Below, one piece after another: positions 13,638 through 62,685 of a stretch of 64,000 nt of DNA. The notes under the pieces are model-generated. The model did no database searches and was not told the origin of the DNA. It was given only the letters and a program-made list of their open reading frames with translations. Source of the stretch: an uncultured Candidatus Saccharibacteria bacterium (GTDB taxonomy: Bacteria; Patescibacteriota; UBA1384; DTJR01); NCBI GenBank assembly GCA_964473025.1, contig CAYYMZ010000001.1:24163-88162 (forward strand), written 5' to 3'. Made by a program: the position numbers and the translations under genes. Position 1 is the stretch's first letter, and every line of letters starts with the position of its first letter.

Positions 13638-13719
13638 CTTTTTGCCCTCATTTATTAGATAGAATCCAAACTAGCTGTTTTTAAAGGTAACACAAATTTG
13701 AGTATTTTCAACACCGCGG

Positions 13720-14634
13720 GTGCGGTTAGTTTTACCCGTTGAACGTGACGGAAGTATCATACTTGACGTGACCAAAATCGAGCCGGGGGAGGGACATCGG
13801 CCTTTGGAGGCCAAGTATGCGGGCGCAGATCCCGCAGCTCTGCATCGGCTCACCAAACGAATCCGGGGGCCAATCTCGACCTACTGTTGGCCGGGTGAAG
13901 CAACCGCGCTTTTGGCACCGTTTGACAAGCTCCAAACCCTGCCCGAGCACCTGATCACAAAACTCAAGGCGAAGTACGGGGTGTGGGAGATTGGGGTGCT
14001 TCTAAACGAAGTGAGAAATACCGGCGCCCCCTACATCTGGAACGTCGCCGAGCCAAGCGGCGGTATGGCAGAAAGTGCCAACCTTGAGCTTGAGGCGATG
14101 CTCGAAATTGTCGAGATGGGGTTCTACAGGGAAGATGGCTGGGCGTCCTTTGATGTCTCGCGCCTTGCGAGTGCTGACCACTCGCAGGAAGTACTCGCCG
14201 AGCAGGAACGCTTGTGGCGTTCCATTAACCCCACCCTCGAGCGCAGGTGCGCGGTAGAGCTCTTGCCGATTGATCGTTTCGGCACAGATACCTTCAACGG
14301 GCGCCGTGGGATTATCTCGGTGCGCAAGGACGGCGGCCTCGGTTTTTTGAGAGCCGCTTACCTCCCTCTCAAAGAGGACGGATGGCGTCTGCGCGATCTG
14401 GAGGAGCATTTCGATCCGCAAAGCCAAACGAGCCAGATGCTCGACCGTAAGATCGTGGGGATTGTCGAGCGCATTGGCGGCAGATCGTCGCTGATGCTCG
14501 AGTTCGCCCCTAATGGCAGGCTTGATGAGTGCGGCCTGCACGTGGCCTTATCGGGCGAAGCGCTCAAGTACAACATCGGGCATCTAACCCGCTACGCGCT
14601 CGGTCCACGCGGTCTCGGCTGGATTAAGGACTAG
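13720..14634 (+). CDS. hypothetical protein (304 aa) in GC-rich islet
   Basis: 915-nt ORF in ~60% GC DNA (long ORFs unlikely by chance at this GC); GTG start, no clear SD; no recognisable motif. Confidence 0.5.
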   Translation: MRLVLPVERDGSIILDVTKIEPGEGHRPLEAKYAGADPAALHRLTKRIRGPISTYCWPGEATALLAPFDKLQTLPEHLITKLKAKYGVWEIGVLLNEVRNTGAPYIWNVAEPSGGMAESANLELEAMLEIVEMGFYREDGWASFDVSRLASADHSQEVLAEQERLWRSINPTLERRCAVELLPIDRFGTDTFNGRRGIISVRKDGGLGFLRAAYLPLKEDGWRLRDLEEHFDPQSQTSQMLDRKIVGIVERIGGRSSLMLEFAPNGRLDECGLHVALSGEALKYNIGHLTRYALGPRGLGWIKD

Positions 14635-14657
14635 CAGTACTACACAAGGAGGCAAAT

Positions 14658-15294
14658 ATGAATATCAGGTTTGTGCTGTTTGACATCGGTAACGTACTGG
14701 CGCTGGCGGATCGCCGGCGGACGGTGGAAGCGCTCATATTGCGCCACGGCGTCCCACGGGAGTTGGCCGAGGGTTACTTCGACCGCGCCGACTATGCCAC
14801 CCTAGGCCGGGGGGCAAATCAAGTGGGAAGAGTACTGTCAGCGTCTTCGTGAGCAGTGGCTTGTCGAGATCCCCGATGAAGATATTCACAGGGCACACGC
14901 TGGTCACATCTACGCTCTCGATGAGGAAGTAGCCGAATTGATTGCGAGAATTGAGGCCAAGCCTAATGCGCTAAAGGTGGCTGGTGTAACTAACACCAGT
15001 GGGGTCGAATTTGTGCGCTACTGTAATCTCAACGTAACCCTTGTTCTCGATCCGGTCTGGTGCTCATACCAACAAGGAGCGCTCAAAGGCGGTGAGGGGA
15101 TTTTCGGGCGGATTGTTGGCGCATGGATTCCGGATAACCTCGGCGTCGGGGTGGGGCCAGATCAGGTTCTACTCATCGACGATAGTCCCGAGAACTGTGT
15201 CGCGGCAGCCGCGGCAGGGCTGACAACGTTCCAGTACACTCCCTACCAACCCTGGCTTCTGGAGGCCTATCTCCGGGAGCAGGAAATTATATAG
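14658..15294 (+). pseudogene. HAD-superfamily hydrolase interrupted by a frameshift in a G6 homopolymer
   Basis: HAD motif I FVLFDIGNVL at N-terminus (ORF 14658-14852) and motif VLLIDDSPEN..AAAGL in ORF 14938-15294; deleting one G at 14809-14814 fuses the frames (..DYATLGRGQIKWEEYCQRL..). Confidence 0.7.
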
Positions 15295-15323
15295 TGAGTG
15301 TCAGCGTAAAGGAGATGATCACT

Positions 15324-15352
15324 GGGGGCCCCGACAGGCCCCCTTTCCTATC
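15324..15352 (+). terminator. rho-independent terminator
   Basis: GGGGGCC-ccgaca-GGCCCCC perfect 7-bp GC stem followed by TTTCCTATCTT; marks 3' edge of GC-rich islet. Confidence 0.7.
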
Positions 15353-31023: not shown

Positions 31024-31099
31024 GTGCCTGTAGCTCAGTGGATAGAGCGCTGGTTTGCGGAACCAGAGGTCGGAGGTTCAAATCCTCCCAGGCATACCA
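31024..31099 (+). tRNA. tRNA-Arg (anticodon GCG as read from gene)
   Basis: 76 nt, GTAGCTCAGTGGATAGAGC D-arm, anticodon stem CTGGT/ACCAG loop TTGCGGA, T-arm GGAGG-TTCAAAT-CCTCC, CCA encoded. Confidence 0.85.
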
Positions 31100-31235
31100 T
31101 AAAAGATGTCGGCTGAAGTTTATCCGTCTCTGGCGGAGAGCCGAATCAAACCCTGCCTGCCCCTCGTAGCCAAAGGCGAAGTGGGGTCGGGCGTACCATT
31201 CGACTTGAACCGGCAACTTGTTTTTGTAAAAGAAA

Positions 31236-31268
31236 GGGCCTTACCACGCGTGCGGTAAGGCCCTTTTG
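31236..31268. terminator. bidirectional rho-independent terminator
   Basis: GGGCCTTACC-acgcgtgc-GGTAAGGCCC 10-bp stem followed by TTTTG on plus strand and TTTCTTTT on minus strand. Confidence 0.7.
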
Positions 31269-31289
31269 CTGTCCTGTCACGGTCTGCAC

Positions 31290-31532
31290 CTAGCAGACCG
31301 TCTCGGGGATATTGTCCGTGCCCTCCATGCACGGATCGCCGTCAGCCCTATGGTGCTTGAGCAGTCGCCAACTGAGAGCTTCATCTCCAGTGCAAGTGAG
31401 ATGATCCCCCACCGAGTCGAAGCCGCCGTGGTTTGCGGCTTGCTCGAGCTCCCGATCTTCCGCTCTTCGCAGCGGAAGGTCTGACTGATTGCAGAATCCA
31501 CAGGTTCCCTTCTTGCTTTCCGCTCCGGCCAT
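31290..31532 (-). CDS. small Cys-containing hypothetical protein (80 aa) in GC-rich islet
   Basis: strong SD AAGGAGGG 7 nt upstream of ATG; ends just before bidirectional terminator; GC-rich unlike neighbours. Confidence 0.5.
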   Translation of the reverse strand: MAGAESKKGTCGFCNQSDLPLRRAEDRELEQAANHGGFDSVGDHLTCTGDEALSWRLLKHHRADGDPCMEGTDNIPETVC

Positions 31533-31572
31533 ATTATCACCCTCCTTGGTATTTGGACAAGCGAAACATCAA

Positions 31573-42916: not shown

Positions 42917-43732
42917 ATGACAATTGGCGTTGGTATTCTGGCAGGAGGTCAGGGGAAGCGTCTCAAGCAGAATGTGCCGAAAGCGGAGGCACCACTCTAC
43001 GGCAGGCCGATGTGAGCTTACACGTGCGAAGCGGCACTGGAGATTACCAGGGAGCAGATCCAAATGGTCGTGCCGGCAGGAAGGCAGATTCACCACCATC
43101 AGGTAGAGTGCCTTGATACCCGCCATTCGTACATGGGCGATCTGTTTCAGCTTGTTGAACGGGCAAGGGAAAGAGAGTACGACCGTTTTCTGGTCATCAA
43201 TGCCGACTCCGTGCTGGTGACGGCCAAATCCCTACAGAGTTTCCTGGAATTGACCGAAGGGAGCGAAGCCGGCATTATCTGGCCGGCGATCCGACGCCAC
43301 TCCATCCCAGAGATGCTCCGGCAGACGGTCTTGAACGACCTGCCGGGGAGACCGGATCTCATCCGCAGCGGGGTTATGATGTTCAGGCCAGCGTCACTTC
43401 ACCCCAAAAAGAACATTCTTCGTAAACTAGCCCGCGATCCGAACAAGATAGTGCTCAGATCGCCTCTTGGCTTACCGTTCTGGGCCTTCAGGAGAGTTCA
43501 AGCGGAGTTTTACCGCCGCTATGCCGAGCTTCCTCTTCTTGGTCTGCGCAACTGCATCATGTGGGGCATGAAACTGCTCAACACAGAGGAGATCAAGAGC
43601 TGCATGAAAAGTTGTTTGGGTTGCGAGAGGGTAGAAATGCCGGAACTGGACATCGGGGTATTCGGCTTCGACGTCGATACGCCCAAAGAGCTGAAGCTGG
43701 CAGAGGACTATCTGCGCAGGTGGGGAAGATAA
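42917..43732 (+). pseudogene. MobA-like NTP-transferase (nucleotidyltransferase) gene with in-frame TGA at 43013-43015
   Basis: N-terminus GILAGGQGKRL..LYGRPM-[TGA]-AYTCEAAL continues in same frame as 222-aa ORF; strong SD GGGAGGGG; GC-rich; stop falls where MobA homologues have Trp. Confidence 0.55.
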
Positions 43733-44647: not shown

Positions 44648-47233
44648 TTATGAACTGATTTCCGGCCATTTAGCCGAAATCAGATTTTCGCTATCTTTAA
44701 ATTCTTTTGGAATTTTCTGCCATATGGTTTCGGTCACATAGGGAACGAAGGGGTGGAGCATTTTGAGAGAATCAATCAGAATCAAAACAAGCTTCGCCCT
44801 GGCCGCAGTGCAATCTTCTGCCAGGTCGCTTTGCAGCCGGGGTTTAGCTTCTTCAATCATTATATCAGCAAACTCGTGCCAAATAAAGTCGTACAATAAT
44901 TCTCCAGCGCGCGAGAAGTGTAACTGGTCTAAATGCTTGGTTGTTTCTATAATTACTTCATTGAATCTGACCAAATCTTTTTCGTCTTGTTTTGACCATT
45001 TGGCATTTGAGCTTAGAGCTTCATTTGTTATTTGGGTTTTGTCATTTGGGTTTTCCAGGTTCATCAAAACGAACCTTGAGATATTCCAGATCTTGTTTGA
45101 AAAATTGCGATAGCCCTTGATTTTTGACTCTCCGACGGCAATATCGTTGCCGGCGGTTGTGCCGACGATTAGCGACATTCGAACGGCATCGGTGCCATAT
45201 TTTTGGGCAACATCGAGCGGGTCCAAAACGTTGCCGAGCGATTTGGACATTTTGCGGTTCTGTTCATCGCGGACCAGGCCATGCAAATAAACCGTTTCAA
45301 ACGGCGCCTTGCCGGTTAATTCCAGTCCCATCATAATCATCCGCGCAACCCAGAAAAACAGGATATCATAGCCCGTTTCCATGACGGTTGTTGGGTAAAA
45401 ATATTTATAATCTTCGGTTTCCTTGGGCCAGCCCAAAGTCGAGAACGGCCATAATCCGGACGAAAACCAAGTGTCTAACACGTCCTCCTCCTGCGTCCAG
45501 TTCTCGATGTCTTTTGGTGGCTCGGCACCGACGTAAATGTCATCCTTGGAAATTTTCAATTTTAAATTTGAAATTTTTAATGAATTTTCAATGTCAGAAT
45601 TTTGGAACTTGTCACGCACAGTGAAATCATAGGCATAGATATAAGCATCTGTATCGGGATTAACTTCTTTTTCCGGATTATGAAATTTGAAGGCCTCGAT
45701 CAGTTGCCCGACATTGTCATAAACTGCTCCGTGAGCTTTGTCCTGAAGGGGCAGATCTTTTACTTTTGTCTTTGTTGATTCGGTTATGATTCCAAAGCCA
45801 AAAATTTCACTGGTGGCGCTATTCTCAAAATAAACCTTATCTCCAACTTTAAGTTCGTGATTGCGGATGCGATACGTTTTAGTTTTACCAGCTAAAATTT
45901 GCGGAACTACTCTTTCCGCAATCCCCATCACCTTCAATTTTAAATTTGAAATTTTAAATTTTAAATTCGCATCCTGTTTACGGTAGTAAACAGGCATGCG
46001 ATGTCCCCACCAAAGTTGTCTCGAAATACACCAGTCACGGATATTATCCATCCAGTGAAAATAAACTTTTTCAAATCTTTTGGGCGTAATTTTGATTTTG
46101 CCTGATTTTACGGCCTTTTTAGCTTTTTCAGCGAGTGGTTTCATCTTCACAAACCACTGTTTCGAGGGGATCGGCTCAATTTGTCCGTTGCACCTGTAGC
46201 ATAAGGCGATGTTGTGTTCGTAGTTTTCCTCGATATGGTCGATCAAGCCCATCTTCTGCATATCGTCGACGATTGTCTCGCGCGCATCACGGGTTTTCAT
46301 GCCAGCGTATTTGCCTGTATTTGCCATCATGCGGCCGTTCTCGTCGATAACTTGCTTCATTGCAACGTTGTGCCGTTGGGCAATTTCAAAGTCAACTAAA
46401 GAATGTGCGGGTGTCACTTTGATAGCACCGGTGCCAAATTCCGGATCAACGGCATTGTCTTCAACAACGATAACTTCGAATTCTCCCAAAACGCCTGGAA
46501 TCATATATTTTTTGCCGACCATATCTTTGTAGCGCTTATCTCCCGGATGAACGGCAACGGCGGTATCACCGAGTTTGGTCTCAGGTCGGGAGGTTGCTAA
46601 GACAAACGGGCCGTATTTTATCCAATACAATTTCCCTATCTCTTTTTTGTATTCCACTTCATCGTCGGCGATGGCGGTGTGACAGCGCGGGCACCAGTTG
46701 ACAGTACGAAGTCCCCGATAGATTAATTTTTTTTCATAAAATCGGACGAATGCTTCATTGACGGCATCGGACATGCCTTCATCTAATGTAAATCTCTCGC
46801 GGCTCCAGTCGCAACTTGCCCCCATGGCGCGAAGCTGATGGGTAATCTCCCCGCCAAATTCGTTTTTCCATTCCCAAATGCGCTTGACGAATTCCTCACG
46901 GCCGAGATCTTTTTTAGTTTTGCCTTCTTTGCGGATCTGCTTTTCCACTACTGCTTGAGTGGCGATGCCAGCGTGATCGGTGCCGGGGAGCCAGAGAGTC
47001 GGTTCGCCCTTCATTCTGTGATAACGGGCCAAAATATCTTCCAAAGTAATAAACATGGCGTGGCCAATGTGCAATTTACCCGTTACGTTTGGCGGCGGCA
47101 TCATGATGGTGAAGGGCTTTGCCTTAGGATCTATTGTTGGTGTAAAGGCACCCGATTTTTTCCACAGAGAATAAATATCTTGCTCGGATTCCTTCGGGTT
47201 GTAGGTTTTGTCTAGATCCATGGTTAAATCCAA
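44648..47233 (-). CDS. valS: valine--tRNA ligase with an inserted ASCH-like domain
   Basis: HIGH motif PPPNVTGKLHIGHA, WCISRQLWWGHRMP, DVLDTWFSSGLWPFSTLGWP, KMSKS; 861 aa. Confidence 0.9.
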   Translation of the reverse strand: MDLTMDLDKTYNPKESEQDIYSLWKKSGAFTPTIDPKAKPFTIMMPPPNVTGKLHIGHAMFITLEDILARYHRMKGEPTLWLPGTDHAGIATQAVVEKQIRKEGKTKKDLGREEFVKRIWEWKNEFGGEITHQLRAMGASCDWSRERFTLDEGMSDAVNEAFVRFYEKKLIYRGLRTVNWCPRCHTAIADDEVEYKKEIGKLYWIKYGPFVLATSRPETKLGDTAVAVHPGDKRYKDMVGKKYMIPGVLGEFEVIVVEDNAVDPEFGTGAIKVTPAHSLVDFEIAQRHNVAMKQVIDENGRMMANTGKYAGMKTRDARETIVDDMQKMGLIDHIEENYEHNIALCYRCNGQIEPIPSKQWFVKMKPLAEKAKKAVKSGKIKITPKRFEKVYFHWMDNIRDWCISRQLWWGHRMPVYYRKQDANLKFKISNLKLKVMGIAERVVPQILAGKTKTYRIRNHELKVGDKVYFENSATSEIFGFGIITESTKTKVKDLPLQDKAHGAVYDNVGQLIEAFKFHNPEKEVNPDTDAYIYAYDFTVRDKFQNSDIENSLKISNLKLKISKDDIYVGAEPPKDIENWTQEEDVLDTWFSSGLWPFSTLGWPKETEDYKYFYPTTVMETGYDILFFWVARMIMMGLELTGKAPFETVYLHGLVRDEQNRKMSKSLGNVLDPLDVAQKYGTDAVRMSLIVGTTAGNDIAVGESKIKGYRNFSNKIWNISRFVLMNLENPNDKTQITNEALSSNAKWSKQDEKDLVRFNEVIIETTKHLDQLHFSRAGELLYDFIWHEFADIMIEEAKPRLQSDLAEDCTAARAKLVLILIDSLKMLHPFVPYVTETIWQKIPKEFKDSENLISAKWPEISS
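45556..45579. repeat. 24-nt direct repeat copy A flanking valS insertion (encodes KISNLKLK)
   Basis: caattttaaatttgaaatttttaa; second copy 378 nt (in frame) away at 45934. Confidence 0.8.
45934..45957. repeat. 24-nt direct repeat copy B flanking valS insertion
   Basis: caattttaaatttgaaattttaaa, 23/24 identical to copy A. Confidence 0.8.
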
Positions 47234-47337
47234 AATCTAAATGACAAATGACAAATAAAGTCCAAATGACTTAATATCAAATATTTTGAACTTTGAACTT
47301 TGAGCTTCATTTGGCATTTTGGCTTTGACATTTGAGC
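47234..47337. repeat. trpS-valS intergenic spacer made of degenerate TCATTTG-type repeat units in inverted arrangement
   Basis: left half aaatgacaaatgacaaataaagtccaaatgac, right half catttggcattttggctttgacatttgagc; related words at 45001-45060 and 56361-56400. Confidence 0.6.
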
Positions 47338-48375
47338 TTAACCTAAGCCAATCCTGTCTTTTACCTGGCTTAGGGTTTCCATTGCGATAGGTTCTATTTT
47401 TTTGGCCCCTTCGGCTAAAATCTGGCGCAATTTCTCTGGTTCGGCCATCAAGGATTTATATTTTTCCTGAATTGGGGCCAAGAATTTGACTAGTTCCTCG
47501 GCGAGGGCGTCTTTAAACTCGCCATACTGCTTGCCTTCAAATTCTTTTTCTAGCTCAGCGATGGTTTTGCCCGAGATTTCGGAATAAATAGTCAAAAGGT
47601 TGGTCAGTGCTGGTTTGTCCGCGCCTGATTTAATTTCCGACCCGGAATCAGTGACCGCCTTTTTGATTTTATTGCGGATTGTCTCGGCATCATCAGTTAG
47701 AGCGATGTAATTCAAGGCAGATTCGGCCGATTTAGACATCTTTGCTCTTGGATCGTCTAGGCCCATAATACGGGCACCCGATTTTTTGATGATTGGGTTT
47801 GGCACGACAAAAAGATCACCCCGCCCGCATCCGCTGGCGCCAGCTTTTGACGGGCAAGCATATTTATTATTTAATCGCTCGGCGATATTTCTGGTTATTT
47901 CGAGGTGCTGTTTTTGGTCATCGCCAATCGGCACGTTGGTGGTTTGATAGAGCAGGATATCTGCGGCCATAAGGACCGGATAATCGAAAAGACCAGCGGA
48001 AACATTGGGTTTGTTTTCGGCTTTTTCCTTAAATTGTGTCATTCTTTGTAATTCGCCTAAGGTTGTAAAACAATTCAAAATCACCGCTAATTCCGAGTGT
48101 TCCGGGCGGTCGGATTGGACGAAGATAGCTGATTTAGCAGGGTCGATGCCGCAGGCGACATACATAGCGGCAACCGAGAGAATGTTCTTTTTCAGCTCTT
48201 CAGGATCTTGGGGAACGGTGATGGCGTGAAGATCAACGACACAGAAAATACACTCACCATCATTTTGCATTTCAACAAACTGCTTGATGGCGCCGATGTA
48301 ATTTCCAATATGTAACACTCCCGACGGTTGAATGCCGGAAAAAACCCGACTGCCGGTAGGTACGTCTCTTTTCAT
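47338..48375 (-). CDS. trpS: tryptophan--tRNA ligase
   Basis: GIQPSGVLHIGNYIGA (HIGH region) and KMSKS; 345 aa. Confidence 0.85.
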   Translation of the reverse strand: MKRDVPTGSRVFSGIQPSGVLHIGNYIGAIKQFVEMQNDGECIFCVVDLHAITVPQDPEELKKNILSVAAMYVACGIDPAKSAIFVQSDRPEHSELAVILNCFTTLGELQRMTQFKEKAENKPNVSAGLFDYPVLMAADILLYQTTNVPIGDDQKQHLEITRNIAERLNNKYACPSKAGASGCGRGDLFVVPNPIIKKSGARIMGLDDPRAKMSKSAESALNYIALTDDAETIRNKIKKAVTDSGSEIKSGADKPALTNLLTIYSEISGKTIAELEKEFEGKQYGEFKDALAEELVKFLAPIQEKYKSLMAEPEKLRQILAEGAKKIEPIAMETLSQVKDRIGLG

Positions 48376-48516
48376 ACTCTAAATTTAACAAAATCAGGTT
48401 GAATTATCAACTTCATTTTCTTGGGCCTCTTTTAAAGAGGCCATCTTCCGAAGCAAATAGAATTTGCATCTGACTTCTCGCACATATTTATGCGATAAAT
48501 CGGTGCGAATTAATTT

Positions 48517-48546
48517 AAAAAAAGCGGCCCCCTGTGAGGGGGGCCG
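48517..48546 (-). terminator. rho-independent terminator (minus strand) ending GC-rich operon 50078-48582
   Basis: CGGCCCCC-tgtga-GGGGGCCG 8-bp GC stem with A7 on plus strand (T7 on minus). Confidence 0.7.
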
Positions 48547-48581
48547 TAGAGTCCGATCGTGCCCCTAGGGGGCGGTCGGAC

Positions 48582-49427
48582 CTATGAGATGCGGTCGAGG
48601 AAGTGGGGATCGTGGTCAAGGTGGTGCCTGATGGCGGCCGCGTCTGACTTGGAATGTGACGACACCGGAAGTGTCGGCCGCGCGAGCAGGTAGAGGACCC
48701 AGTAGGTGGCCGCGACGACGATGAGCTCGGCGGCAAGCCTGCCAATCATCATGGTGTCAGAACCAACGACCATGACTGACAGGGCTCCAAAAATCGGTGC
48801 CGCGGCTACTACTACTAACCCAAGGCCATATCGCGAGATCTTGTATGGCCTGTGTGCGATTGCGGCGCCTGTCATACCCCAGAACAGACAGCCGAACAGA
48901 GCAAGTGCAGGCCAGAGCAGGTAAACCAACGCGAAGATCTCCCCATTCAGATTCGCAAGATGGGGGAAGATTCTTTGTGCAAGGTAGTGAACCGCGAAGG
49001 AGCTGACAAACAGCGTCACCCATCCCACCGCAGTCAGGACCTTGATCAGCTTGAAACTGACCCGCTCGAGGTCGCCCTCGACGATGCGGATTGGGTCTGC
49101 CGTAGTGTGTAGGACCCAGGCACCAATCGCCGCGGCGCAGAACAGCCACCCGCTGATGGCATCCCAATAGACGCCTATGCAAACAGCCGCTATTGCCAGT
49201 ACTGCCAGCGTACTGATGCAAATCCCGTTGCCCGCCAGTTCGTGCTTCCCTGACTTGATCTCGAGTCCATTGAGGATGTAGGTAACGACGCGAAGGGGGA
49301 TCAGGCCAACCAGAATTCCGGTGGCCATGGCCCAAAGCGGCGGATGAGGCAGGCGAAACGCGGCGATTGAGACGTAGGCGATGGCCGCGTAAATCATCGC
49401 GTAAATCAGAAAACGCCTGAAACGCAT
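48582..49427 (-). CDS. hypothetical polytopic membrane protein (GC-rich islet)
   Basis: 281 aa, ~8 hydrophobic helices; ~58% GC. Confidence 0.5.
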   Translation of the reverse strand: MRFRRFLIYAMIYAAIAYVSIAAFRLPHPPLWAMATGILVGLIPLRVVTYILNGLEIKSGKHELAGNGICISTLAVLAIAAVCIGVYWDAISGWLFCAAAIGAWVLHTTADPIRIVEGDLERVSFKLIKVLTAVGWVTLFVSSFAVHYLAQRIFPHLANLNGEIFALVYLLWPALALFGCLFWGMTGAAIAHRPYKISRYGLGLVVVAAAPIFGALSVMVVGSDTMMIGRLAAELIVVAATYWVLYLLARPTLPVSSHSKSDAAAIRHHLDHDPHFLDRIS

Positions 49428-49445
49428 TGGTATTCCTCCTTTCGG

Positions 49446-49901
49446 TTACGGTCCTTGCCGATCAAGGACTTCGACGTCTTCAGGGCTGTAGACATCTTGC
49501 TCGGGAGAAACCGCAGGTTCTTCGGTGGTGGGTTTTGCCGCTTCGTCCCAGACGAGGCAACCGAGGATGGTTGCGACGATGGAGATGGATGGAATCAATG
49601 TCCAAGCAAGCCATGTTCTTCCCCCAGCAAGGCCGGCGACAAGCGTCTCAACGCCCAAGACCGCCACAATTGTTGCCACGGCAGCGACCCGGGCAGCATA
49701 CTCGTCGAATGTGCTAGAAGGATTGCTGGTCATCCAGAACCAGAGCCAAACGCAACCAGCCCCAATCAGCACCCCGACGGCGATTTTGCCTTCGATGGCA
49801 CCCGCTGCTCCACCGGCAATCCAGCAGAGGAGTCCTACTAAGTATGCGGCTAGTAGGCTTAGTATTGCTCCCTTTACGAACGGTTGAATCTTGTACCACA
49901 T
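49446..49901 (-). CDS. hypothetical membrane protein (GC-rich islet)
   Basis: 151 aa, 4 TM, acidic C-terminus. Confidence 0.45.
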   Translation of the reverse strand: MWYKIQPFVKGAILSLLAAYLVGLLCWIAGGAAGAIEGKIAVGVLIGAGCVWLWFWMTSNPSSTFDEYAARVAAVATIVAVLGVETLVAGLAGGRTWLAWTLIPSISIVATILGCLVWDEAAKPTTEEPAVSPEQDVYSPEDVEVLDRQGP

Positions 49902-50168: not shown

Positions 50169-50828
50169 ATGTGCTATATTCGGCTTATGCGTTATCGGCA
50201 AAAATATTTAAATCGGGCAAAAATTGCGGCGCGCGCTTTGAGCTTTGTGCCGTTTTTGCGCATGGCGGGATTAAACGGTTCGATGGTCAGAGGAGATGAT
50301 ACAAGAAAAAGCGATATTGATTTTTTATGCATTGCCAAAGCGGGGCGGTTATACACAGCAAGATTTTTTGCGACTTTGTATGTTGCCATAACGGGTTGGC
50401 GGCGGCATGGCAAACGGGTAGCGGGGCGTATTTGTTTAAACTGCTTTTTGTCTGACCGAAAGCCAGATATTACACCCAAAAATCCCAAGTCAAAAAAGAA
50501 AGTGGCTTGGGCGTATAAATACACGATTACATTAGTTCAAGATGGCAGGATTACCGAGAAGTTTTTTGAGACGAACGAATGGTTTGCAAATTATAAAGTC
50601 CCCGGTCAAAAATATAGCCACAAATTGCAGGAAGAGATTTTTAAGTTTTTCCCGATCAGGCGACGCAAGTTTAGCGAAAGATTGATAGAAGGAAAATTCG
50701 GCGATTGGATTGAGAGAAAATTGATGAAATATCAGGTTAAACGAATTCTACGCGGTAAAAATACGAATGATGAAACAGTAGCGACAAAATCAGAAATAAG
50801 ATTGCACCCGAGAAAAGTTTATAAATGA
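50169..50828 (+). CDS. nucleotidyltransferase-domain protein (Pol-beta superfamily)
   Basis: GSMVRGDDTRKSDIDFL motif (GS..D.D); 219 aa. Confidence 0.6.
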   Translation: MCYIRLMRYRQKYLNRAKIAARALSFVPFLRMAGLNGSMVRGDDTRKSDIDFLCIAKAGRLYTARFFATLYVAITGWRRHGKRVAGRICLNCFLSDRKPDITPKNPKSKKKVAWAYKYTITLVQDGRITEKFFETNEWFANYKVPGQKYSHKLQEEIFKFFPIRRRKFSERLIEGKFGDWIERKLMKYQVKRILRGKNTNDETVATKSEIRLHPRKVYK

Positions 50829-50856
50829 AAAGGGAGCCCCTGCGGGGGCTCCCTGA

Positions 50857-51087
50857 CTAACTTCGGCAGTCGGGGGCGGATCGCGCCTCGACAGAGTCGG
50901 AGACGACGACCACACTCACCTTGTTCGCCTTCGGGTCAAAGGGGAGGGGATGGGATTGCACAATCCTCCGGTCAGGGTTATGGGCCTTCCACAAAGCGAG
51001 GATCTTTTCCACTGCTCCCTGTATGTTCAAGGCGTGATGAGAGGCTGGGTCAACATCAGTGCTTACGGTTTCGATTTGCTGATCCAT
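50857..51087 (-). CDS. hypothetical protein (76 aa, GC-rich)
   Basis: ORF in GC-rich stretch, no motif. Confidence 0.35.
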   Translation of the reverse strand: MDQQIETVSTDVDPASHHALNIQGAVEKILALWKAHNPDRRIVQSHPLPFDPKANKVSVVVVSDSVEARSAPDCRS

Positions 51088-51143
51088 CTCGCACCTCCTG
51101 TGTGCTACCGAATGAATGTCTGACTACTGATCGGACACGATGC

Positions 51144-51683
51144 TTACATCATCGCGTCGTTCGGATCGCCTGCGAGCTGGGAAAGGTCGGCCACTAGCCC
51201 TTCTCTCCGCGGGTTCTTCGGCTCGAATAGCCCGACCGCATCGGAGCCGGCGACCAGTTCGCCGACTTTAGCAACATCGCCGTTGAGGGGGAACCCCCAC
51301 GGCGGTGGGAGAAAGTCCCCACCCCCGCAGATTTTGTTGCCCTTCTCGTCGTAGAGGAAGGTCTCTGCCGGGTGTGATGGTGTCGAGATGCGCCGGGCAA
51401 AGGAGGCGATTTCCTTGAGCTGCTCCACGGATCTCATCCGATCCACTTGCAGTAAGATTGCCATGGTGGCGATGAGGCCGGTTGCGACGAAGCACGCTCC
51501 TTGGACGACCCAGTAGAGATCGGCTAGCCCCGCGAAGAACAGTGTGAAGATTCCGACTGGCAAGAGAATCCAAAACAGCCGGCTTGCCAACCTTCCCATG
51601 CGAGCGTAATGGTTCCACCACGCCCGATAGTGGGTCTTACTGTAGTGCACGCCCCGATCTACTTCCTGCATTTCAGCAGCCAT
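51144..51683 (-). CDS. hypothetical membrane protein (179 aa, GC-rich)
   Basis: two TM helices then soluble domain. Confidence 0.45.
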   Translation of the reverse strand: MAAEMQEVDRGVHYSKTHYRAWWNHYARMGRLASRLFWILLPVGIFTLFFAGLADLYWVVQGACFVATGLIATMAILLQVDRMRSVEQLKEIASFARRISTPSHPAETFLYDEKGNKICGGGDFLPPPWGFPLNGDVAKVGELVAGSDAVGLFEPKNPRREGLVADLSQLAGDPNDAMM

Positions 51684-51801
51684 CCCGATCCCTCCCTATG
51701 TCAAGATTGCACGACTCTCAATTTCTTGAGTCCATAATGATATGTAATTTGAGGTAAGATGTCAACTGGAAAAGAGAAAAAATGCTTTGAGTAAAGTCAA
51801 C

Positions 51802-51904: not shown

Positions 51905-53840
<1,936 letters not shown>

Positions 53841-53903
53841 TCGCAAGCGATTACAAAGTCAAAAGTCAGAACTAGAAAGTCAAAAATAAGGAGACGCAAA
53901 AAA

Positions 53904-53926
53904 GCGCCCGTCTGGGTGCTTTTTTG
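53904..53926 (+). terminator. rho-independent terminator after groEL
   Basis: GCGCCC-gtct-GGGTGC followed by TTTTTTG. Confidence 0.7.
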
Positions 53927-53939
53927 CTTGAGTTTAACT

Positions 53940-54750
53940 TCTAGTTTCTAAAATGGTCTGGACACCGGACGTGACGGGGATGTCGCGTCCGGTGTCCTTG
54001 GGGAGGAGGCCGTTCCTGCAGTCTGCAGTCAGGTTTGGCCTGGAACCGATGAACCCGAGCCAACAGGATTCATCGTCGCTGCCTCTTGGGAAGGCAGCAA
54101 AAATGGGCGAGCAGCAAGTTCCCCCCGGAAGCAAGCTGCTCGCACCGAGTCGGTTTTGGGGCAGCCAGGAGGGGTCGGGGCCCCTAACCGACATCTCAGA
54201 TGATGGCAGCCGGTGGCAAAACCGGATGATCAGATGATGGGATGATCGGAGATGGTTTGCCACCGGAGCGATACGGAGTTAGGAGGAAGATGGCCGGACC
54301 GGACAGGTAGGGATTTGGAAGCTCGGAGCCAAGAACTATCCTTTTACCCTTTTCGCCGCGGTGCGGCACCCTTGTCCGGTCCGGTGCGGTTGCCAGGGTT
54401 TCCCCCAGCGCCCTCGAGGAGGTTCAGGATTAGAAAGAAGTGCGACCGGATAAACCCCTGGTCTGGGTAGTCAATTTGTGAAACCCAGGGCGGTGTCCGC
54501 TCCCGTCAACCTCCAAGCTGCCATAGTCGTGAGGTGCCTAGAGATTGAGCGAACGCCGTTAACACAGGCCCTATCCGGAGGACCTCCGGTCCCCATAAAA
54601 CCGGAGATTTTGGGGCAGCCGGAGCTCTGGCCTTGATTCGCCTTGGCCCCGGAAATTTCAGTCGTTTCAGTGATCGTTCGCAAAGATGCGGATTAAGCGT
54701 AATTTATCATTTTCAACCCGATTTGTCAAGACAAAACAGGTCGGATTGGC
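53940..54750. other. GC-rich ORF-poor highly structured region (candidate ncRNA or decayed island DNA)
   Basis: no convincing ORF on either strand over ~800 nt; perfect 12-bp hairpin GGACACCGGACG/CGTCCGGTGTCC (53960-53996), 9-bp GCGAGCAGC/GCTGCTCGC (54106-54145), CCGGAGG/CCTCCGG. Confidence 0.3.
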
Positions 54751-54798
54751 AAAAAAAGAGCGCCCGGCCCCAGTTCTTGTAAACTGGGGCTGGGCGCT
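54751..54798 (-). terminator. rho-independent terminator (minus strand)
   Basis: 17-bp stem AGCGCCCGGCCCCAGTT/AACTGGGGCTGGGCGCT (one G-U) with T7 on minus strand. Confidence 0.7.
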
Positions 54799-54819
54799 GG
54801 GTATGACCGGTTGTAGCGG

Positions 54820-55113
54820 TCAGTGGCCGCTGGAGGTGGCCAGAAGCACGGAGCAGTTGGCGATGCAGTGACCGTTGATGATAACGGCACTGCAGCTGCA
54901 GCGACCTTCGCCGGCATTGTAGAGGCTGTCGTGGAGCGCAGTATCACCGCTGCGATAACGCTCACCGACGGTGGCCATCGAGACCAACTCGACATTGTGG
55001 CCATCGTCCTGCAGGCAGATGCCGAGGGCCGGTACGGTGGCGCCCTCCTCGTTGTAGCTATAGGCAGTCTGGTTGACGATGGCTGCTGTCGTTGTCGAAA
55101 GTCCGTTTTGCAC
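54820..55113 (-). CDS. small Cys/Ser-rich protein (97 aa)
   Basis: GTG start with SD AGGAGAG 8 nt upstream; terminator immediately downstream; C-terminal GRCSCSAVIINGHCIANCSVLLATSSGH. Confidence 0.55.
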   Translation of the reverse strand: MQNGLSTTTAAIVNQTAYSYNEEGATVPALGICLQDDGHNVELVSMATVGERYRSGDTALHDSLYNAGEGRCSCSAVIINGHCIANCSVLLATSSGH

Positions 55114-55137
55114 GAATAAATCTCTCCTGGTGTTAGA

Positions 55138-55608
55138 TTAACTGTCACAACCGCCGAGGCACTCGCCAGCGATGATCGGCAGACCGCACGTGGAGCAGAA
55201 CTTGACACCGAAACGCCTGAAGGCGCGGCGCATCACGTCGGTTCCATCGCGGATCAGCTCTCTCGCCCGTTCAGGCGAGATCAGCTCCACTTGCCCTTCC
55301 TCCAGTATCCGATCGTGCGTGCACGGCACTTCACTATCGTGCTTAGTGCAGACCATTCCGAAGACCGAGCAGAAGACGAGCTCCGGATCGGGCGGTGGTG
55401 GCTCTTCGGTCTTGACGTAGAGTTCCTCAACCTCGGCGGGCAGGGGACCGAACACGACGCTACAGTTCGGACATTGCTTCGTGTCTGGTGTGAGTGTGAA
55501 CAGGCAATTCTGGCAGATCCAGCTCCCATCGTCGAGATGACGCGGTGGTTGGATCTCAACGGGCGGTTTCACCTTAAGGGCGGTTGGTTTTCTCAGACGC
55601 CAAAGCAT
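55138..55608 (-). CDS. double zinc-ribbon hypothetical protein
   Basis: SD GGAGGG upstream of ATG 55608; CQNC..CPNC and CSTC..C..C motifs. Confidence 0.6.
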   Translation of the reverse strand: MLWRLRKPTALKVKPPVEIQPPRHLDDGSWICQNCLFTLTPDTKQCPNCSVVFGPLPAEVEELYVKTEEPPPPDPELVFCSVFGMVCTKHDSEVPCTHDRILEEGQVELISPERARELIRDGTDVMRRAFRRFGVKFCSTCGLPIIAGECLGGCDS

Positions 55609-55666
55609 GGCGATCCCTCCAAACAAATGTAGTGAACGTCTGAACTAGGATAATTCAGATCATACG

Positions 55667-55695
55667 ATTATAAACCTAATATAAAAAGAGGTCAA
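55667..55695 (-). promoter_or_regulatory. sigma70-type promoter of zinc-ribbon/Cys-peptide operon
   Basis: minus strand TTGACC-17 nt-TATAAT, ~55 nt upstream of start. Confidence 0.55.
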
Positions 55696-56024: not shown

Positions 56025-56387
56025 TCATTTTTTTAGAATTGAAGAGAAGATGAGAAGCAATTCCTGCGATTCTCTCCATAACTTTCGGCATTCTTCTTTC
56101 TGCTTAGGATTTGCATCAGCCATGATTCTTAGCCAATATCTTGTTTCTTTTGCCTCCTTCTTACAGATTGATATTTTATGCTTAAAATCTTTCTTAGAAT
56201 TGCAAGCATCCGCTTCACAGTAGTTTGCTCCTATACTTGAAGAAGCTCTAACGAGCTGCGTGACAAGAGGTTTGTTGATCGAGTTAGCTGGTGTCTTCTT
56301 CAAAAGCCTAATAACATCGAGAGTAAAAGCAGTCGTTCTTTCTTCTAAATCATATTTTGGTTTATGATTTTGAGCTTTATTTGTCAT
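56025..56387 (-). CDS. four-helix-bundle protein (23S rRNA intervening-sequence protein family)
   Basis: LVTQLVRASSSIGANYCEA..KISICKKEAKETRYWL matches family consensus; start at internal Met MTNKAQ. Confidence 0.65.
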   Translation of the reverse strand: MTNKAQNHKPKYDLEERTTAFTLDVIRLLKKTPANSINKPLVTQLVRASSSIGANYCEADACNSKKDFKHKISICKKEAKETRYWLRIMADANPKQKEECRKLWRESQELLLIFSSILKK

Positions 56388-57321
56388 TTGGGCTTTCGGC
56401 TTTATCGTTTGCGGTTCTATTATGGAACCGCTTATGTATCTCGTGCAAATGCTTGTCGGTAACATGGGTATAAACTTGGGTGGTGGTGATCGAAGAGTGG
56501 CCTAATAAACTCTGCACAGAGCGTAAATCCGCTCCGGCGCGCAAAATATCAGTGGCAAATGAATGGCGCAAAACGTGCGGCGTAACTTGTTTGACGATAC
56601 CGGCGCGCCTGGCCGCTTCGGCTACAATGCGCTCGACCTGCCTTGAGGTTAACCGCCCGCCGGATTCAGAGAGTTCATTCGAACCCAAATCCTCGCCGTT
56701 GGGCTTTGAATCTTTAATAAATAACGCCTTGTCTTTGTCGTGGCGCGCTTTGAGATATTTTTCGACCCACTCCTTGGCTTCGTCAGAGAGAAAAACGACA
56801 CGGCGTTTGCCGCCTTTGCCGTCAACCGAAAATTCCTCGTGTCCCAGATTAACCTGATCGCGGTTTAGGCCGGTTAATTCCGAAACGCGTACGCCGGTGG
56901 AAAATAAAATTTCTAAAATCGCGCGGTTTCTAAGTTCCAAAATATTTTTTTCACCATATACATTGCGGATTCGCTCTAACTCTTGCGGTTCCAAAAAAGC
57001 AATTGCGCGCTCGGGAGTATCGGAGAGTTCAATTTTCTCGGGCGCAAGCGATTCAACATCTGTTTTTGATAAATATTTCAAAAAGCTCCGAATCGCAATC
57101 ATATAATAGTTCATCGTTTTGTTTGCAAGGCCTCGCCGGTGCAAGACGAGCCGCCACTTTTTGATGAGTTCAAGGTCTATTTTTTTCACCGAAACTATAC
57201 CCTGACTTTCGGCAAATTCGGCAAATTTACTAAGATATGAATCGTAGTTGCGGATTGTCAGCTGGGAGTGCCCGCGCTCGAGTTCAATATATTCTAAAAA
57301 TTCTCTAATTTGTTTTTCCAC
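56377..57321 (-). CDS. xerC: tyrosine recombinase XerC/XerD
   Basis: C-terminal catalytic HVLRHSFATD..LLGHSSITTTQVYTHV with Tyr; 314 aa. Confidence 0.85.
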   Translation of the reverse strand: MEKQIREFLEYIELERGHSQLTIRNYDSYLSKFAEFAESQGIVSVKKIDLELIKKWRLVLHRRGLANKTMNYYMIAIRSFLKYLSKTDVESLAPEKIELSDTPERAIAFLEPQELERIRNVYGEKNILELRNRAILEILFSTGVRVSELTGLNRDQVNLGHEEFSVDGKGGKRRVVFLSDEAKEWVEKYLKARHDKDKALFIKDSKPNGEDLGSNELSESGGRLTSRQVERIVAEAARRAGIVKQVTPHVLRHSFATDILRAGADLRSVQSLLGHSSITTTQVYTHVTDKHLHEIHKRFHNRTANDKAESPNDK

Positions 57322-61711: not shown

Positions 61712-61917
61712 CGCTCGGGTATCTTGCTCTCTCGGCACGCGTCATCTCATCCAGCGATGAGATGCGCTCAAACCTCGGCTTCACGGCCCCCCTATGGGGG
61801 AACCATGCCCGCTCGCCTGCGGACGGCGTCGAGAGCAACCACCCTCGCTCGGATATTCGAATTAAATTTTGTCTTGTAAAATTTTCTTGCTATAATTAAA
61901 CTAAATCAAGGAGGAGT

Positions 61918-62685
61918 ATGGTTGATAGTGCAAAGCCTTTAGGACAAGAACCAGGGGGCGGGTTACCGCCGGCAGAAGCAGCACCAGTTGAAGTGCCAGT
62001 TGATGGTGCGCCACAAGAAGCAGCACCAGCCGCTGTACCAGTAGAGCCAGCGCCAGCGGAAATAGCGCCAGATGATCTAGGTCCTGCCCAACAAGCGGTT
62101 GGAGAAGCGGCTGCGGCTGAGGAAGTTGTGCCTGCCACCAAACCTGCGCCAATAGAAGCCTCTGCAAAAAGTCCGGAAGATCTTTCAAGAATGGTAGCTG
62201 GGGATGAACACGAAAATCTGGAGAATTCGTTGGTCGGTGATCAAGGGCCAAATCCTGAAGAAGTTTTGCCAGGGCAAGAAGAAGCGATAACGGGTGGGAT
62301 AGAACCTGACATATACAGTCCCGATCCGCTCGTTCCAGAGCAAAAACCCGCAGCGGCAGCGGTACCCGCGGAACCGGTTACTGCTCAGCCACCTGCCGCG
62401 GAACCAGTTGCGCCTCAGTCGCCTGCCACAAAAGACGTCACACCTCTGAACCCATCATACAGGGTTGAATCTGAAGAGACAGAGGGGGATCGTCTAAGGA
62501 GAGAAATTAGTGAATTAACAGAACAAATGGCTGAAATTGAAAGAAAAAGGGATGTGATTAAGCCTCAAGCTGATGAATACGATAGATTGACCGAAGAGTT
62601 GAAAACCGTATATGCGAAATTTGATGGAAAGTGGAAGGAATTCGAAGCTTCGCCTGAATCAAAGAAAAATAGTCAGGTGGGATAA
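61918..62685 (+). CDS. hypothetical Pro/Ala/Glu-rich protein with C-terminal coiled coil
   Basis: SD AAGGAGG; promoter-like TATAAT at 61893; low-complexity N-terminal 180 aa. Confidence 0.5.
   Translation: MVDSAKPLGQEPGGGLPPAEAAPVEVPVDGAPQEAAPAAVPVEPAPAEIAPDDLGPAQQAVGEAAAAEEVVPATKPAPIEASAKSPEDLSRMVAGDEHENLENSLVGDQGPNPEEVLPGQEEAITGGIEPDIYSPDPLVPEQKPAAAAVPAEPVTAQPPAAEPVAPQSPATKDVTPLNPSYRVESEETEGDRLRREISELTEQMAEIERKRDVIKPQADEYDRLTEELKTVYAKFDGKWKEFEASPESKKNSQVG

Follow-up and report, generated by a model that had tools for sequence, protein, structure and literature searches.

The question raised by this locus is what two small, cysteine-rich genes do in an unusually GC-rich segment that lies between tm76, the gene for a 76-aa membrane protein, and groEL on a 64,000-nt stretch of contig CAYYMZ010000001.1 (assembly GCA_964473025.1, an uncultured Candidatus Saccharibacteria bacterium); this whole stretch is referred to below as the window. 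An earlier note on this DNA had described the genes as a self-contained foreign module that might pair a peptide resembling the precursor of a ribosomally synthesized and post-translationally modified peptide (RiPP) with a zinc-ribbon partner. We retain the operon and arrive at a different account of its products, which we call ZnA and ZnB. With a probability of roughly 55%, ZnA-ZnB is a vertically inherited, clade-restricted operon for a zinc-stabilized hetero-oligomer that acts via protein contacts. It forms the first of two conserved, GC-rich transcription units wedged between tm76 and groEL, the second of which specifies a structured RNA.

The operon lies on the minus strand and comprises a near-consensus promoter, a 156-aa open reading frame (ORF; ZnA), a 24-nt gap, a 97-aa ORF (ZnB) and a terminator with a 17-bp stem, all as the earlier note had listed them. 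The sigma-70-type promoter (TTGACC-17 nt-TATAAT, 55667 to 55695) agrees with the consensus at 11 of 12 positions. Since a 3-kb scan returned five promoter-like sites where 2.9 were expected, the match by itself is weak, not significant evidence; the promoter is credible because it is conserved across four diverged lineages, with the -35 and -10 elements and their surrounding bases invariant in the window and in the related loci L020, L021 and L022 (alignment A7). The 5' leader (55609 to 55660) is, like the promoter, nearly unchanged in these four lineages. In the minimum free energy (MFE) fold of the operon transcript it carries a 5'-terminal hairpin (approximately 55659-55639) ahead of the Shine-Dalgarno (SD) sequence GGAGGG (55620-55615), and both the hairpin arms and the SD sequence are kept in all four. 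ZnA extends from an ATG at 55608 to a TAA at 55138-55140, the intercistronic spacer (55114 to 55137) contains the SD sequence AGGAGAG (55128-55122), and ZnB extends from a GTG at 55113 to a TGA at 54820-54822; the second SD sequence and the GTG start are also kept in L020. The TGA lies within a small hairpin (TGACCG-N7-CGGTCA, 54804 to 54822; alignment A8). This hairpin and the His codon before it are conserved as DNA in each of the four lineages, the C-terminal region of ZnB being otherwise variable around this His-TGA end. The hairpin may be a processing, stability or regulatory element; selenocysteine insertion or read-through at the TGA is excluded by a 1-nt indel after the stop that breaks the frame in L021. 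The intrinsic terminator (54751 to 54798), found both as inverted repeat I3 and in the terminator scan, is formed by two 17-nt arms (54759-54775 and 54782-54798) that are 94% complementary, enclose a 6-nt loop and are followed by a U run. In L020, L021 and L024 the terminator sequence differs and a stem persists. With a sigma-70 promoter at one end and an intrinsic terminator at the other, both kept in orthologous loci, ZnA-ZnB is a compact, well-punctuated bicistronic unit.

Both sense-strand ORFs are genuine genes. They are intact in four related Berkelbacteria-like lineages whose DNA no longer aligns, and these lineages share the conserved Cys/His columns, the SD sequences and the start codons. 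Protein similarity outlasts DNA alignability (36-40% between the window and L021, 27% between the window and L022), and ZnB is 62% identical to its L020 counterpart, L020_94 (E about 1e-39), so that both ORFs have the homologues whose absence the earlier note would have counted against them. Differences between the window and L020 at the three codon positions number 24/20/31 in ZnA and 23/17/38 in ZnB. The coding parts have fold z values of 0.4 and -1.7, compared with -9 to -11 for the adjacent RNA, and with a z of about 0 the coding part of ZnA is not a structured RNA. A 98-aa ORF on the opposite strand (54823-55119, +), which the earlier note had named as a possible real gene, does exist and is called in three of five public assemblies. 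Its frame stays open in three of the four lineages because the DNA is GC-rich, contains a stop in L021 and lies opposite genes in which changes at third positions of the sense frame dominate; the antisense call is a strand mis-annotation typical for GC-rich DNA. In the gene calls of L001-L003 and L025 the antisense ORF (98 aa; 111 aa in L025) takes the place of ZnB. The sequence over the locus is identical in five independent assemblies, indicating that it is not an assembly chimera.

ZnA consists, in order, of a basic and aromatic N-terminus, a ribbon (C32-C49), a Pro-rich linker (EPPPPDP) and a C-terminal domain of about 80 aa. The ribbon has the form C-x2-C-x10-C-x2-C with a leading Trp, and its CQNC...CPNC motifs are followed further on by CSTC...C...C. 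Three ZnA sequences share ten invariant residues (C46, C80, C87, H90, C96, H98, C138, C141, C150 and C154), and the C-terminal-domain Cys/His ligands from C80 to C154 are also retained in the fourth; eight or nine ligands are conserved, which suggests two structural metal sites. Within the window, BLASTP aligns ZnB with the C-terminal half of ZnA (E 8e-5), and between genomes it aligns L021 ZnB with L020 ZnA (E 4e-7); the two proteins have in common the motif C-x1-2-C-x2-P-I-I-A-G-x-C-x3-C (alignments A1, A4 and A6). In this alignment the Cys-rich C-terminus of ZnB, CSCSAVIINGHCIANC, is the counterpart of the best conserved motif of ZnA, CSTCGLPIIAGECLGGC (C-x1-2-C-x8-C-x3-C); a tail of the form ...SG(K)H is conserved in ZnB. 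On these alignments, ZnA and ZnB are long and short paralogues, ZnB being a stand-alone, partly degenerate copy of the ZnA C-terminal domain. The suggestion of a peptide with a zinc-ribbon partner holds insofar as the pair is compact and undescribed; a long paralogue with a short one describes it better. The N-terminal ribbon belongs to a known class of module: a Foldseek search of the PDB with it gave weak matches, the best being to the fingers of Nup153, RanBP2 and TRABID (E about 0.4), from a model with a predicted local distance difference test score (pLDDT) of about 61 overall and 68-77 over the ribbon. The C-terminal CCHCH...C4 domain had no match in Pfam, NCBIfam or PDB sequences and no fold match in the PDB, and it and the long/short paralogue arrangement are without described relatives.

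The family is an orphan restricted to a narrow clade. When ZnA and ZnB were each compared with 5.8 billion proteins in a word-indexed search, only the query itself was returned, and a profile of eight family sequences over the shared domain recovered family members only from the same set. An exhaustive phmmer search of 1.84 billion representatives yielded two ZnA orthologues (P0003, 68% identity, and P0004, 40%), and a metagenome scan with cluster look-up added a fourth ZnA lineage at 27% identity; P0006/P0009 are likewise homologues of the ZnA ORF. Nothing exceeded threshold for either protein in Pfam, NCBIfam, PHROGs, PADLOC or the PDB sequence profile, no ZnA relatives were found among GTDB species representatives, and a search of the full-text literature found nothing relevant to the locus. 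Among GTDB species representatives, a Candidatus Berkelbacteria metagenome-assembled genome is the nearest, with XerC and GroEL 66% and 81% identical to those of the window, which accordingly comes from a bacterium of the candidate phyla radiation (CPR; Patescibacteria).

Wherever ZnA and ZnB were found they occur together and in the same place: the pair is present with the same synteny in four lineages, and every ZnA/ZnB locus follows the order xerC-(IVP)-tm76-ZnA-ZnB-...-groEL, with a second ORF on the same strand after ZnA in each. The groES-groEL genes (51905-53840, +) converge on the locus, and its other flank carries tm76, a 23S-rRNA-IVP-family protein, XerC, PAP2, VTT, Zip and YchF. The fixed synteny of the operon points to vertical inheritance in a narrow clade, as does the lack of any match in viral contigs, a phage collection or a plasmid collection, whether to the RNA, the island or either protein. 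The GC-rich setting described in the earlier note is real (58-61% GC in the operon, compared with 44% over the window and about 36-47% in the genes beside it), and it is especially marked at third codon positions (GC3), where ZnA and ZnB reach 0.69-0.74 compared with 0.32-0.49 for their neighbors. GC3 is 0.66-0.80 over all four lineages, and because it remains high despite a synonymous divergence (dS) of about 0.6-0.8 between the two closest of them, the composition is being maintained rather than fading. The description of the operon as a foreign module therefore did not hold, and these comparisons argue for a unit that is not recently foreign and has been inherited vertically.

Relative to their neighbors, ZnA and ZnB evolve far faster. 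Identity of ZnA to the window protein falls from 67% in L020 to 36% in L021 and 27% in L022, compared with 91%, 78% and 83% for XerC in the same lineages, and ZnB goes from 62% identity in L020 to a partial alignment only in L022. The ratio of nonsynonymous to synonymous divergence (dN/dS) is 0.46 for ZnA and 0.33 for ZnB, compared with 0.034 for tm76 at similar dS. Constant expression signals combined with fast-evolving, mostly acidic proteins (isoelectric point (pI) 4.4-5.9 for most members) fit action through evolving protein-protein contacts, and enzymes or generic nucleic-acid binders match this pattern less well. We therefore propose that ZnA and ZnB, being acidic and fast-evolving, act by binding another protein, probably as regulators, adaptors or sequestering factors, with ZnB modulating ZnA; a catalytic role or a generic binding of nucleic acids would be less likely. 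In this proposal the conserved ligands probably bind structural Zn(II), ZnA having two sites and ZnB about one, and the co-translated proteins probably form a hetero-oligomer via the domain that they share. They may also be functionally linked to the neighboring structured RNA.

Several observations weigh against a zinc-stabilized hetero-oligomer of this kind. The dN/dS values of 0.3-0.5 amount to moderate constraint only. The N-terminal ribbon occurs in the ZnA of the window, L021 and L022 but not in the L020 orthologue, which makes the C-terminal domain the core of the family. Several ligands are lost in ZnB and its C-terminal half is rearranged in L022, so metal binding by ZnB may be absent altogether. 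Acidity is not general, L021 ZnA having a pI of 7.5 and L022 ZnB one of 9.5. The two AlphaFold models are of low quality (pLDDT 61 and 63.5), and for that reason the fold, the zinc stoichiometry and the hetero-oligomerization are things that we only infer. Finally, the close linkage to a structured RNA could mean an RNA-related function despite the acidic pI.

That RNA is the source of the alternative that survives best, and we consider it the most interesting part of the locus. Just past the operon terminator, a second conserved promoter (TTGACA-17 nt-TAAATT with the TG of an extended -10, 54701 to 54729, minus strand; 10 of 12 consensus positions), whose pattern TTGACAAA..GGTT..TG.TA is kept in four lineages, precedes a region of about 800 nt (53896 to 54694, minus strand) that we assign to an unclassified structured non-coding RNA by its fold, its compensatory base changes and its lack of a conserved ORF. 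The RNA ends at the bidirectional groEL terminator (53896-53927), and its indels relative to L020 are not multiples of 3. Its MFE z is -11.35 on the minus strand, compared with -4.3 on the plus strand. RNAalifold placed 211 pairs in the window and L020 sequences, with 14 compensatory double changes and 0 broken pairs, a result that is supportive and not conclusive because only two sequences were used and the pairs were chosen by the program. A 190-nt block of the RNA is 93% identical, compared with a dS of about 0.7 in neighboring genes. The RNA matched no family among the 4227 models of Rfam 15, with which only tRNAs passed in the window, and at E<=10 the island gave only terminator-like sub-threshold matches and the related loci nothing. 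An identity as tmRNA, tRNA-like RNA or RNase P was rejected on negative ARAGORN and Rfam results. One sub-threshold Rfam match, to sraL (53837-53928, +; 28.8 compared with a threshold of 39 bits), covers the 3' end of groEL and the bidirectional terminator and is most likely due to the terminator hairpin alone.

A third zinc-ribbon ORF, ZnC (118-119 aa), lies under the control of the same conserved promoter in sister lineages and is missing from the window and L020. ZnC and structured RNA together occupy 6997-7930 in L021, 3293-4316 in L025, 741-1350 in L024 and, with a ZnC-like ORF, 11485-12230 in L006. In L021 and L025, whose loci are complete, the structured stretch that follows ZnC measures about 500-670 nt (about 440-670 nt when L006 is included), and the first 253 nt of such a stretch are present in the truncated contig L024; fold z is -6.2 in L021 and -8.8 in the L024 fragment. 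Comparison of the L021 and L025 RNAs gave 20 compensatory pairs; a hairpin loop, UUCGAGU(U/A/C)CCCUCUCCU, is conserved between them. L006, a more distant Berkelbacteria representative, has a structured RNA (z = -9.3), no ZnA or ZnB, and a possible ZnC-like ORF of about 100 aa (a weak match, tblastn E 0.087). Homology of the window and L020 RNA to those of L021, L025 and L006 was examined by nhmmer, blastn and motif searches, which found the terminator only. Nor did hhalign support ZnC as a third paralogue of the ZnA/ZnB domain; its ribbon weakly resembles that of ZnA, with no other likeness.

On this evidence ZnA and ZnB, with ZnC in the sister lineages, might be subunits or chaperones of the adjacent RNA, making the locus a clade-specific ribonucleoprotein. 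The protein operon adjoins an RNA unit, each with its own conserved promoter, in every ZnA/ZnB lineage; the RNA transcript itself begins with the ZnC ORF in L021 and L025 and probably in L006, where the ORF match is weak; RanBP2-type ribbons, of which PDB entry 3g9y appears in the weak Foldseek list, can bind single-stranded RNA; and the unusual GC-rich composition is common to all units. However, most members are acidic, which is atypical of RNA-binding proteins, the RNA of L006 exists with a ZnC-like ORF and without ZnA and ZnB and is thus independent of them, the RNAs of different lineages have no detectable sequence in common, and adjacency alone is weak evidence. We consider such a role unlikely, if worth keeping in view. 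Somewhat less likely again is the broader idea that the GC-rich tm76-groEL locus as a whole is an undescribed ribonucleoprotein, built from a fast-diverging RNA of 0.5-0.8 kb and the co-evolving zinc-finger mini-proteins ZnA, ZnB and ZnC. If it were so, the high GC would be kept by selection on RNA or protein structure, and the function of the particle would be peculiar to these episymbiotic CPR bacteria.

A small conflict module, whether toxin-antitoxin, phage-defense or anti-defense, would account for two small co-transcribed genes that evolve much faster than their neighbors, and it would also explain their orphan distribution and odd composition. This is nonetheless improbable: PADLOC gave no significant match (the best, to DpdC, was a 12.7-bit fragment with E 0.023) and PHROGs none, the genes are related to each other in a way unlike the make-up of a toxin-antitoxin pair, and in all lineages they are fixed between housekeeping genes, without mobility signatures and without phage or plasmid relatives.

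The proposal that ZnB is a RiPP precursor with a Cys/Ser/Thr-rich core, and ZnA its zinc-ribbon partner, draws on the composition of the ZnB tail and on the better conservation of the N-terminal half of ZnB (AAIVN..AY.Y....TVPALGI) than of its Cys-rich C-terminal half, a pattern that recalls leader and core. We judge it very improbable. The supposed core and the most conserved structural motif of ZnA are homologous, and because the two align the ZnB tail is better read as the metal site of a folded domain. The earlier note had remarked that no modification enzymes are adjacent, and the same is true of all four lineages: out to about 10 kb there is no radical-SAM, YcaO or LanM/LanB-type enzyme, no peptidase and no ABC exporter, the neighbors being XerC, IVP, tm76, GroESL, PAP2, aminoacyl-tRNA synthetases and YchF. 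A Pfam survey of the window and four syntenic loci for RiPP-cluster enzymes likewise returned only XerC, IVP, GroESL, PAP2, VTT, Zip, YchF, TrpRS, LeuRS and ORFans. ZnB matched no hidden Markov model of RiPP precursors and is without a recognizable leader cleavage motif.

That the ORFs are spurious, the whole 1.8-kb GC-rich island being a non-coding structured RNA or the antisense 98-aa ORF being the gene, is hardly credible, for although long ORFs can stay open by chance in GC-rich DNA, the antisense frame is open in most lineages and preferred by several gene calls, and the neighboring 800 nt are truly non-coding, the sense ORFs are intact in every lineage with their Cys/His columns, SD sequences and starts, changes cluster at their third positions, L021 interrupts the antisense frame, the coding parts fold unlike the RNA, and amino-acid similarity persists where DNA similarity does not.

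We therefore favor a protein pair acting through protein contacts, and its setting gives it some weight. Genomes of CPR bacteria (Patescibacteria) are tiny, and for this reason a conserved, strongly promoted orphan locus beside groESL likely matters for their biology. ZnA and ZnB represent a new small-protein family, built on an eight-ligand Cys/His domain without sequence or fold relatives, in which the long and the short paralogue may be a regulatory pair. For annotation, the locus is a caution against taking Cys-rich short ORFs for RiPP cores, and an example, here in three of five assemblies, of gene callers choosing the wrong strand where DNA is GC-rich. The RNA of about 800 nt would add a new class of large structured RNA; to our knowledge almost no such classes have been described from this phylum.

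The locus is not the only GC-rich segment of the window. Further islands above 55% GC, in a window of 44% GC, occur at 13701-15350, 31051-31550, 42951-43550, 48451-49900, 50801-51700 and 61901-62250. The ORFs examined in three of them have GC3 values of 0.57-0.72 and no Pfam domain; they encode 304 aa (13720-14634, +), 281 aa (48582-49427, -), 151 aa (49446-49901, -), 76 aa (50857-51087, -) and 179 aa (51144-51683, -). The genome thus looks two-compartment, with AT-richer housekeeping genes and GC-rich orphans, and the stable keeping of GC-rich orphan islands in an otherwise 44% GC genome raises the interest of the whole locus.

Two further features lie in the surroundings. The IVP gene (PF05635, Avd-like; 56025-56465, -) overlaps the 3' end of xerC and is present in the window, L021 and L022/L025 and absent from L020 and L006. 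A diversity-generating retroelement, prompted by the Avd-like character of this protein, was considered and rejected: the window is without a template/variable repeat pair, and no reverse transcriptase is among the genes annotated around the locus, at about 44-62 kb. A degenerate, AT-rich sequence about 55 nt long, with units such as TTTGAGCTT and CATTTG, is repeated in the window: one copy is inside the coding sequence of leuS (44999-45053), a second shortly before the start of that gene (47285-47339) and a third where xerC and IVP meet (56362-56416), with an inverted copy at 47232-47266.

Among known systems, the closest to the ribbon of ZnA (approximately residues 30-50, W-I-C-Q-N-C...C-P-N-C) is the RanBP2/NZF C4 ribbon, which has the same spacing and leading Trp. 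The rest of ZnA has no counterpart there, the matches are weak and come from a low-confidence model, and the ribbon is dispensable in the ZnA family, as its loss from the L020 orthologue indicates. Micro-proteins of the Pfam DZR (PF12773) and HVO_2753 (NF041909) families are, like these proteins, small, cytoplasmic and Cys-rich with CPxC-type knuckles; the DZR profile, however, scored 17.8 bits on ZnA compared with a gathering threshold of 27.3 and matched over profile positions 1-18 only, and HVO_2753 scored 12 compared with 80 bits, for ZnC only. The double zinc ribbon claimed in the earlier note is accordingly kept as one zinc ribbon with further Cys motifs, and given up as a DZR-type assignment, the ribbon itself being missing in one lineage. 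Like RiPP precursors such as those of thiopeptides, lanthipeptides and ranthipeptides, ZnB is encoded by a short ORF, is Cys/Ser/Thr-rich at its C-terminus and is better conserved in its N-terminal half; it differs in having no maturase, protease or exporter, and its Cys motif is the paralogous copy of one in a structural domain. The adjacent RNA, finally, invites comparison with OLE, GOLLD, ROOL and raiA, large GC-rich structured RNAs of AT-rich genomes. Unlike them, it is so far known from a single narrow CPR clade, is without an Rfam match and diverges very fast in sequence between lineages; like them, it is a GC-rich, ORF-free intergenic transcript of several hundred nucleotides that has a promoter and a terminator to itself, is predicted to be extremely stable and shows compensatory changes.

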